Made by a program: the position numbers and the translations under genes | Notes under the pieces: model-generated | Database searches by the model: none | What the model was told of the DNA's origin: nothing | The model's input: only the letters and a program-made list of their open reading frames with translations | Part shown: positions 10,327-10,909 of the stretch, one piece after another | How positions within the stretch are numbered: position 1 is the first letter of the stretch | How the letters are laid out: every line of letters begins with the position of its first letter | Virus genome (UHGV): UHGV-0122054 | Direction: 5' to 3' (one strand) | Source: a virus | DNA: 32,224 bases

Positions 10327-10671
10327 ATGACTCAAAACTATGAACTGATTGTGAAAGGGATCCGCAATTTTGAGAATAAAGTTACGGTAACTTTAGCGTT
10401 ACGGGACAAAAAACGCTTTGACGGTGAAATTTTTGACCTGGACATCTCGCTGGACCGTGTTGAAGGTGCCGCGCTGGAGTTTTATGAGGCAGCAGCCAGA
10501 AGGAGCATCAGACAGGTCTTCCTGGATGTTGCTGCCGGGTTATGTGAAGGGGATGAGCAGTCGCCGGAAAAGCGCCCCGTAATTTTAGAGGCGCAGGATG
10601 TGTTGATAACCTACAGAGGAAAACTACCGGGAATAATTACTGGTTCTCTGAAGAGTCCGCCGAAATGGTAA
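10327..10671 (+). CDS. Lysis-cassette protein of unknown function (YdfR/DUF1327-like, tentative)
   Basis: 114 aa, SD GGGGAGAG, starts 4 nt after holin stop; a gene in the same position exists between holin and lysozyme in Qin-type prophages. Confidence 0.5.
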   Translation: MTQNYELIVKGIRNFENKVTVTLALRDKKRFDGEIFDLDISLDRVEGAALEFYEAAARRSIRQVFLDVAAGLCEGDEQSPEKRPVILEAQDVLITYRGKLPGIITGSLKSPPKW

Positions 10672-10909
10672 TTTTACCAGCATATTTTTCATCCAGTAAT
10701 ACAGCAAGCCGCCTGAAAGAGTCTTGTTGTTCCTGAGACCATTTGGGATTGCATGATTCAAACTGGATTGATGCCAGCGTTGATTGCATCTGTTCCCTTG
10801 GAATTGAGAATGCCAGATATGAGAAGGCGACGGTAAGGGTATTCACGTCTTCCCGAAGCCTGGAAATGCTGTCGAGCAACTCCTGTAGAGAAATGGTGTT
10901 ATTGTCCAT
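10637..10909 (-). CDS. Hypothetical protein (90 aa), opposite to late transcription
   Basis: Minus-strand ORF with GAGGA SD 7 nt before the ATG and a TACAAT -10-like element upstream; lies in a lower-GC stretch; 3' end overlaps the 3' end of the preceding gene by 35 nt. Confidence 0.35.
   Translation of the reverse strand: MDNNTISLQELLDSISRLREDVNTLTVAFSYLAFSIPREQMQSTLASIQFESCNPKWSQEQQDSFRRLAVLLDEKYAGKITISADSSENQ

Follow-up and report, generated by a model that had tools for sequence, protein, structure and literature searches.

Why does the lysis cassette of UHGV virus genome UHGV-0122054 contain an open reading frame (ORF) that runs against the late operon, and is that frame a gene? The stretch analysed here (the window, 32,224 nucleotides (nt)) is a lambdoid prophage of Escherichia coli. 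In it a minus-strand frame of 90 codons (10637-10909; ORF90, 10.3 kDa) lies between the genes of a holin and a lysozyme, tail-to-tail with the plus-strand gene ydfR (10327-10671), whose product of 114 residues (YdfR114) belongs to the DUF1327 family. Judged from comparative sequence data, ORF90 is a genuine gene that is under selection and points opposite to the late operon, and the region is a small accessory cassette nested in the P21-type lysis cassette of this prophage. That the cassette is of the moron type, expressed against late transcription and perhaps coupled to the tail of YdfR, is a reading for which we find the chances evenly balanced.

The length of ORF90 is by itself no evidence for a gene because antisense ORFs of like or greater length are numerous in the window (e.g., one of 169 codons antisense to the lysozyme gene). 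The evidence comes from how the frame has evolved. Across six distinct alleles the ratio of nonsynonymous to synonymous substitution (dN/dS; Nei-Gojobori, codons 1-79) is 0.15-0.37, codon position 2 is less changed than position 1 in 10 of 10 pairwise comparisons, and the frame is open at 83-90 residues in every homologue down to 58% identity. ORF90 is also conserved despite unrelated upstream DNA in Citrobacter and on plasmid pK99B_1. The suspicion that it is a chance or shadow ORF, and no gene, can draw on the abundance of long antisense ORFs and on a plus-strand frame, the sole competitor, that shares its wobble positions and, because those positions are shared, has an equally low dN/dS. 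That plus-strand frame is, however, broken by stops at differing sites in four of the six variants, in all of which ORF90 is open, and ORF90 belongs to a family of about 125 clusters from several genera with conserved length, and its Shine-Dalgarno sequence is conserved. Selection, the comparison of frames and the breadth of the family effectively refute the shadow-ORF explanation, which we find scarcely credible.

ORF90 is a full-length member of an uncharacterised Enterobacterales family, phrog_2411 (E = 9.3e-59, residues 1-90 on model positions 1-90 of 90), represented in RefSeq by WP_000369851.1 and annotated as 'hypothetical protein' or 'ybl58'. A search of 5.8 billion proteins returned 62 homologue clusters, nearly all of 90 residues, from Escherichia, Shigella and Citrobacter, down to 58% identity. 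With the results of a profile search (1.84 billion representatives) and of a second homology search, the family grows to about 125 clusters (81-106 residues, 24-43% identity to ORF90) that reach Serratia, Sodalis, Atlantibacter, Chania, Gibbsiella, Chimaeribacter and Acerihabitans; the Atlantibacter relative itself matches phrog_2411 at 2.5e-17. The protein is acidic (isoelectric point (pI) 4.5), hydrophilic, soluble and devoid of a transmembrane segment. Its AlphaFold2 model has four helices (residues 8-18, 22-34, 38-52 and 59-77) at a mean predicted local distance difference test score (pLDDT) of 68 and a disordered tail (80-90), and the C-terminal residues are the most variable part of the family. 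Neither ORF90 nor 12 aligned family members matched Pfam; the sole NCBIfam match of ORF90 (13.7 bits to Mip over 15 residues) was judged noise; a sequence profile search of the PDB gave no match (best E = 0.38); and Foldseek comparison of the model with BFVD returned nothing at E ≤ 0.001. The defence hidden Markov models of PADLOC matched neither ORF90 nor YdfR114 at E ≤ 1, and no paper was found on 'ybl58' or WP_000369851. Databases already list ORF90 and its family as hypothetical proteins; the present analysis adds the exact limits of the insert, the demonstration that ORF90 is coding, a wider family with a chromosomal orthologue among the Yersiniaceae, and a recurrent partner motif.

Both the conservation of the frame in related prophages, which the first-pass annotation of the sequence had named as a test of the minus-strand ORF, and the profile search that it had proposed speak for the gene, and its description of the layout agrees with what we find. 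The holin stop codon (10320-10322) and the ydfR start codon (10327) are separated by 4 nt, the plus-strand ORF is of the YdfR/DUF1327 type (Pfam PF07041, E = 7e-43), the two genes converge with a 3' overlap of 35 nt (10637-10671, both strands), and the minus-strand ORF has both the GAGGA Shine-Dalgarno sequence and the TACAAT -10-like element that had been ascribed to it. The former (10916-10920, minus strand) lies 6 nt upstream of the ORF90 ATG and is conserved in E. coli-type variants. The latter (10924-10929) would form the -10 element of a candidate sigma-70 promoter (10924-10954, minus strand) with a 19-nt spacer and a -35-like hexamer, TTGCCT (10949-10954). TACAAT, the TTG of the -35 hexamer (TTGCCT or TTGAAT) and the Shine-Dalgarno sequence stand out by their conservation, the rest of the upstream region being about 26% diverged. 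A palindrome, CAGCCTG-N6-CAGGCTG (10942-10961), straddles the -35-like hexamer; only the inner 4-5 bp of each arm are conserved in variants, and it could be an operator or a hairpin. A relaxed LexA-box pattern (CTG-N10-CAG) had no match near ORF90, and Rfam had no family at the locus (9950-12150 scanned). A terminator scan of the minus strand found no terminator-like hairpin from the 3' end of ORF90 to the holin gene, and no terminator separates ydfR from ORF90.

Which part of the locus is accessory? A pair of genes was at first thought to have been inserted between holin and endolysin, a view that does not survive comparison, as ydfR is standard in P21-type cassettes (K-12 Qin, O157, BP-4795) and the insertion/deletion covers only about 296 bp. 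Alignment with O157:H7 NE122 and strain 571 places this segment, a presence/absence difference against O157-type prophages, at 10663-10958. It carries codons 1-82 of ORF90, the Shine-Dalgarno sequence, the promoter-like region, and the last two codons and the stop of ydfR; the YdfR C-terminus reads ...PP-KW in the window versus ...PP-LA in the O157 type. The prophages of O157:H7 and BP-4795 have YdfR114 including its tail followed directly by the lysozyme, K-12 Qin has essQ-ydfR-rrrQ without an antisense gene, and in strain 571 only a remnant of the ORF90 5' end is left, as after a deletion. Because O157-type cassettes and about 1850 further genomes have the ydfR tail without ORF90, we regard ydfR as the resident of the cassette and ORF90 alone as the variable insert. 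The 35-nt overlap results from ORF90 continuing for about 8 codons into DNA antisense to the ydfR tail until it meets a stop; the Citrobacter relative stops 7 codons earlier, and there the tail of the partner is still in frame. In phage phiSTEC1575-Stx2k the block holin-ydfR-ORF90 is followed by a wholly different lysis cassette.

The presence or absence of this segment relative to O157-type prophages, its lower G+C content and its opposite orientation bear out the description of ORF90 as moron-like. The AT-rich stretch that had been noted is real (ORF90 has 44.7% G+C against 53-55% in the flanks), but the difference is modest and ydfR itself belongs to the AT-rich part: G+C content is 43.5% in the presence/absence segment, 41% in the spacer 10910-11014, 47.5% in ydfR, 53% in the holin gene, 55% in the lysozyme gene and 54.7% in the whole window. 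Nor can the arrangement be called unusual, as it had been, since the full module is present in 1130 of 5426 complete E. coli genomes (about 21%) and other antisense ORFs fill the slot in other phages.

What ties ORF90 to its neighbour is recurrence. In every prophage late-operon context that we retrieved (retrieved loci are cited by L numbers), the ORF90 relative lies opposite the late genes and tail-to-tail with an ORF of the late strand. At least six prophage contexts in lysis and tail operons make up the set, with five intact motif-bearing ORFs and one remnant. In the E. coli window YdfR114, in the holin-lysozyme slot, ends in GKLPGIITGSLKSPPKW. In Citrobacter meridianamericanus (L003) a relative of 83 residues overlaps by 14 nt a partner of 238 residues that ends in EKITGSLRVPMKL, upstream of a lambda-S-type holin and a CHAP endolysin. 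Two partners of 71 residues occur, one ending in QIFGDLKKPPSY in the interval between the tail genes M and L of Atlantibacter hermannii (L092; relative of 88 residues, 7-nt overlap) and one ending in EKITGSLFAPLSAHPSE downstream of the tail I gene on an IMG/VR contig (L108; 87 residues, 47-nt overlap). Between the tape-measure gene and M (L110/L111) a relative of 83 residues overlaps by 4 nt a partner of 46 residues that begins with MTLEERVEVLEK and ends with AKIYGELMKPVC. The remnant, which adjoins an IS110 (L109; relative of 85 residues, no overlap), ends in RIIGSLITPPEL with the near-match IIGSL. On the short contigs L112/L113 a relative of 87 residues overlaps by 17 nt an ORF of 85 residues that shares the sequence LEERVTVLEK and lacks the tail motif. 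At two of these loci (L092 4856-4873 and L108 2333-2349) an intrinsic terminator of the late strand stands just past the upstream region of the ORF90 relative, at the distal edge of the inserted module; at the equivalent edge the window has no T-run terminator, only the palindrome 10942-10961.

The feature that the partners share is short. In five independent contexts the motif I-[TFY]-G-[SDE]-L-[KRFM]-x-P stands 2-7 residues before the stop of the partner; in YdfR it is I-T-G-S-L-K-S-P (residues 104-111; 10636-10659, plus strand). The six-frame ORFs of all fetched loci, 708,329 residues in total, do not contain it anywhere else. The invariant I, G, L and P are encoded by codons that vary with the context (ATT/ATA; GGT/GGC/GGA; CTG/TTA/TTG; CCG/CCT/CCA), which indicates that selection acts on the partner protein and not on the DNA. 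Outside the tail the short partner ORFs have no similarity to YdfR by BLASTP, and hhalign aligns the partner ORFs with YdfR over the 16-residue tail alone.

YdfR itself has two parts. YdfR114 matches PF07041 at 145.2 bits (cut-off 25; residues 1-111 on model positions 1-91 of 93) and phrog_406 over its full length, and comprises an N-domain (about residues 1-70; 10327 to about 10540) and a basic C-terminal tail (residues 78-114; 10558-10671; pI 9.8). The N-domain is about 90% identical to K-12 YdfR over residues 1-70 and the tails differ: homology to ydfR of K-12 Qin ends at about codon 70-72 (about 10535-10540) and returns just before the lysozyme start. Two-hybrid and pull-down assays showed that K-12 YdfR binds RNase E in its N-terminal catalytic half, for which YdfR residues 1-72 suffice, and YdfR co-purifies RNA; its overexpression altered few transcripts and had a limited effect on the transcriptome (PMC13232886). 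Two alleles of the DUF1327 N-domain, MTQNYEL... and MKKKYEL..., occur (10327-10540 compared with L087, L103 and L005), and because each is joined independently to the same C-terminal tail, recombination has taken place within ydfR. Literature searches for DUF1823 and DUF1327 gave nothing useful.

How might such a gene work? In the lysogen ORF90 would be transcribed from its own weak sigma-70 promoter (TACAAT), and because no terminator follows ORF90 its transcript is expected to run on antisense over ydfR into the holin gene. After induction, Q-antiterminated late transcription would meet ORF90 transcription head-on and silence it. Because of this predicted head-on encounter we favour an accessory gene of the lysogenic phase, switched off by late transcription. 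The acidic, helical protein would act by binding another protein, the best candidate ligand being the motif-bearing basic tail of YdfR-type partners, and during lysogeny it would restrain a late protein or leaky late transcripts. A functional link between ORF90 and the partner tail is plausible, though unproven, since the two have remained paired despite deep divergence and several changes of position; that neither gene strictly needs the other follows from the stand-alone relatives of ORF90 and from the genomes, about 1850 in number, that have YdfR114 without it. The convergent overlapping layout, kept in distant relatives, is compatible with mutual antisense regulation and is no proof of it. 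Taken further, the ORF90 family and the small late-strand proteins with an I-[TFY]-G-[SDE]-L-x-x-P tail could be a hitherto unrecognised mobile two-gene module of Enterobacterales prophages, in which the partner, here fused or native to the RNase E-binding YdfR, would have its tail motif bound by lysogen-expressed ORF90 and convergent transcription would make the two genes mutually exclusive. We consider this extended proposal unlikely. If it were true, the module would be a toggle between lysogeny and lysis that, through YdfR, could couple RNase E activity or the timing of lysis to prophage induction.

Several observations weigh against a coupling of ORF90 to the partner tail and against parts of the expression scheme. 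Adjacent DNA may travel together by linkage alone, and neither the fold searches nor the sequence searches of ORF90 gave anything that points to a binding function. The motif was defined post hoc from the same data and, since it was defined after inspection, its statistics are descriptive. A strict consensus promoter scan did not call the candidate promoter of ORF90, which would moreover yield a very short leader. Family members also occur without any motif-bearing partner. Relatives about 60% identical to ORF90 are carried by 75 mostly conjugative E. coli plasmids, and further ones are found in Sodalis as well as in one metagenomic chromosomal context. In Serratia marcescens, S. rubidaea and Chimaeribacter a chromosomal orthologue (gene X; L090 5001-5282 and L114-L117 3001-3279), which has its own Shine-Dalgarno sequence, occupies the dinI-bssS interval in the order rne-pyrC-dinI-X-bssS-solA. 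Antisense translation 3' of the stand-alone copies revealed no tail motif. Conversely, the ydfR tail without ORF90 in about 1850 genomes counts against dependence from the other side. On F-type plasmids of E. coli (L094 1-5270; L099-L101) the ORF90 relative always comes after a large gene for an AIDA-type autotransporter and before a gene for an AraC/GyrI-like regulator. The sequence upstream of the Serratia gene X, read by eye, contains no LexA box, whereas dinI has a clear one.

A different explanation is that ORF90 is an independent, lysogen-expressed moron that acts on a host target and has no tie to ydfR, while the motif persists by proximity and the partner's own needs. The stand-alone members (plasmids, Yersiniaceae chromosomes, Sodalis and the metagenomic context) and the YdfR114 genomes that lack ORF90 agree with it, as do unrelated antisense ORFs that occupy the slot beside other DUF1327 forms. 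It accounts less well for a partner tail that is under protein-level selection beside ORF90 relatives diverged to about 40% identity, and for pairs that have moved to at least five late-operon positions, for which co-selection is a likelier cause than the repeated joint transfer of a neighbour without function. We treat an independent moron as a real possibility that falls short of being probable. The charges of the two proteins (pI 4.5 for ORF90 versus 9.8 for the tail) and the conserved convergent overlap could also suit an antidote/poison or immunity pair, in which a leaked late motif protein would be harmful, ORF90 would neutralise it and convergent transcription would make expression exclusive. 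YdfR114 is, however, common without ORF90, overexpression of K-12 YdfR has a limited effect on the transcriptome (PMC13232886), neither protein is small and hydrophobic, and PADLOC gave no match, all of which makes such a pair distinctly improbable. Finally, the run-on transcript predicted to cover ydfR and the holin gene, for want of a terminator after ORF90, invites the proposal that the functional product is an antisense RNA against ydfR/holin late mRNA and the 90-codon frame incidental. The clear protein-level purifying selection on the frame, its conservation amid unrelated flanking genes and the lack of an Rfam match speak against this very improbable proposal, and in its pure form it is rejected by the dN/dS of ORF90 (0.15-0.37).

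Upstream of the pair, on the plus strand, lie a NanS-p-like SASA esterase gene (8100-9956), a terminator-like hairpin followed by a T-run on the late strand (10039-10067), presumably read through solely by Q-modified polymerase, and the gene of a P21-type, pinholin-like class II holin (10107-10322; Pfam PF04971, E = 9e-33; 'class II holin family protein' in the Prokaryotic Genome Annotation Pipeline (PGAP)). Downstream, also on the plus strand, come the gene of a phage lysozyme (endolysin) of the signal-anchor-release (SAR) type (11015-11548; PF00959, E = 9e-24; PGAP 'lysozyme') and, further on, Rz/Rz1. The 1.1 kb at 10000-11100 are 99.9% identical to chromosomes such as Ecol_316, in which PGAP makes the same gene calls, ORF90 included as a coding sequence.

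The window also holds features apart from the pair. A second moron-like insertion in the lysis cassette, of about 550 bp (11549-12106), separates the lysozyme gene from Rz; it opens with a strong intrinsic terminator (11639-11671, plus strand) and has three or four small hydrophobic ORFs that PGAP calls hypothetical (11841-11972, 11936-12091 and 12103-12189). Further upstream an iraM anti-adapter gene (about 7504-7839, minus strand) sits where phages that encode Shiga toxin (Stx) carry stx, and three tRNA genes (6875-7121) follow the Q/methyltransferase region, as in Stx-type phages. Rfam matched the small RNA STnc100 twice (7200-7390 and 7668-7877, plus strand; 136 and 165 bits), the second match being antisense to iraM, and matched the sok antitoxin RNA at 2551-2726 (120 bits), which points to a locus of the hok/sok type within the early part of the prophage.

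Set in the middle of a lysis cassette, ORF90 is present in roughly a fifth of complete E. coli genomes, including those of the ST131 type (sequence type 131) that were the closest matches. If it is expressed in lysogens, it would join the prophage accessory factors that may influence host physiology or how leaky the lysis genes are. The recurring pairing offers a testable lead for two orphan families, DUF1327/YdfR and phrog_2411. Should there be no coupling, the locus would still be a well-delimited example of a moron, one in which the inserted gene borrows its last codons from the antisense of its neighbour.

How does the locus compare with systems that are already known? Two counterparts are essQ-ydfR-rrrQ of K-12 Qin and S-ydfR-R of O157/BP-4795, which have the same holin, DUF1327 gene and SAR lysozyme in the same order and with the same 4-nt spacing between holin gene and ydfR. 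Unlike the window, these cassettes have no antisense gene; K-12 YdfR has 103 residues and another tail and its gene overlaps rrrQ, and YdfR114 of O157 ends in ...PPLA versus ...PPKW in the window. In other P21-type cassettes the slot between S and R does hold antisense ORFs, of 86 to 233 residues (L106 2258-2518, L104 2000-2260 and L107 2341-3042): 86 in PhiR12_2/PhiR63_1 and 233 in Stx1_499. Like ORF90 they converge on the 3' end of the DUF1327 gene and overlap it, but they pair with longer DUF1327 forms (169, 183 and 263 residues; range 169-263). By hhalign the ORF90 family and the 86-residue ORF of PhiR63_1 are unrelated (probability 0.2%), and the published 'DUF1823' (PF08853) label of the latter is sub-threshold (15.3 versus 25 bits).

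Convergent type I toxin-antitoxin loci with 3' overlap, such as txpA/ratA of Bacillus prophages, offer another comparison. The locus resembles them in its convergent units, overlapping 3' ends and prophage location, and differs in that both products are hydrophilic proteins of at least 90 residues; it shows neither a small hydrophobic toxin nor any hint of a non-coding antitoxin. Assignment to this class is rejected on the maximal 19-residue hydropathy of the two proteins (0.75 and 0.69), on the antisense partner being a selected coding gene and on the lack of an Rfam match. The closer model is the moron of lambdoid phages, a concept of Hendrix and Juhala exemplified by lambda bor and HK97 gene 15. 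ORF90 is a small additional gene that some otherwise collinear phage genomes have and others lack; it is set amid late genes, lower in G+C, equipped with its own translation signals and a putative promoter, and oriented against the late operon like bor. It fits the moron concept in most respects (insertion/deletion polymorphism, composition and orientation) and departs from it in others: the search revealed no intrinsic terminator belonging to it, its reading frame stops within the adjoining gene and not in an intergenic gap, and, unlike a typical moron, ORF90 recurs with a specific partner ORF.

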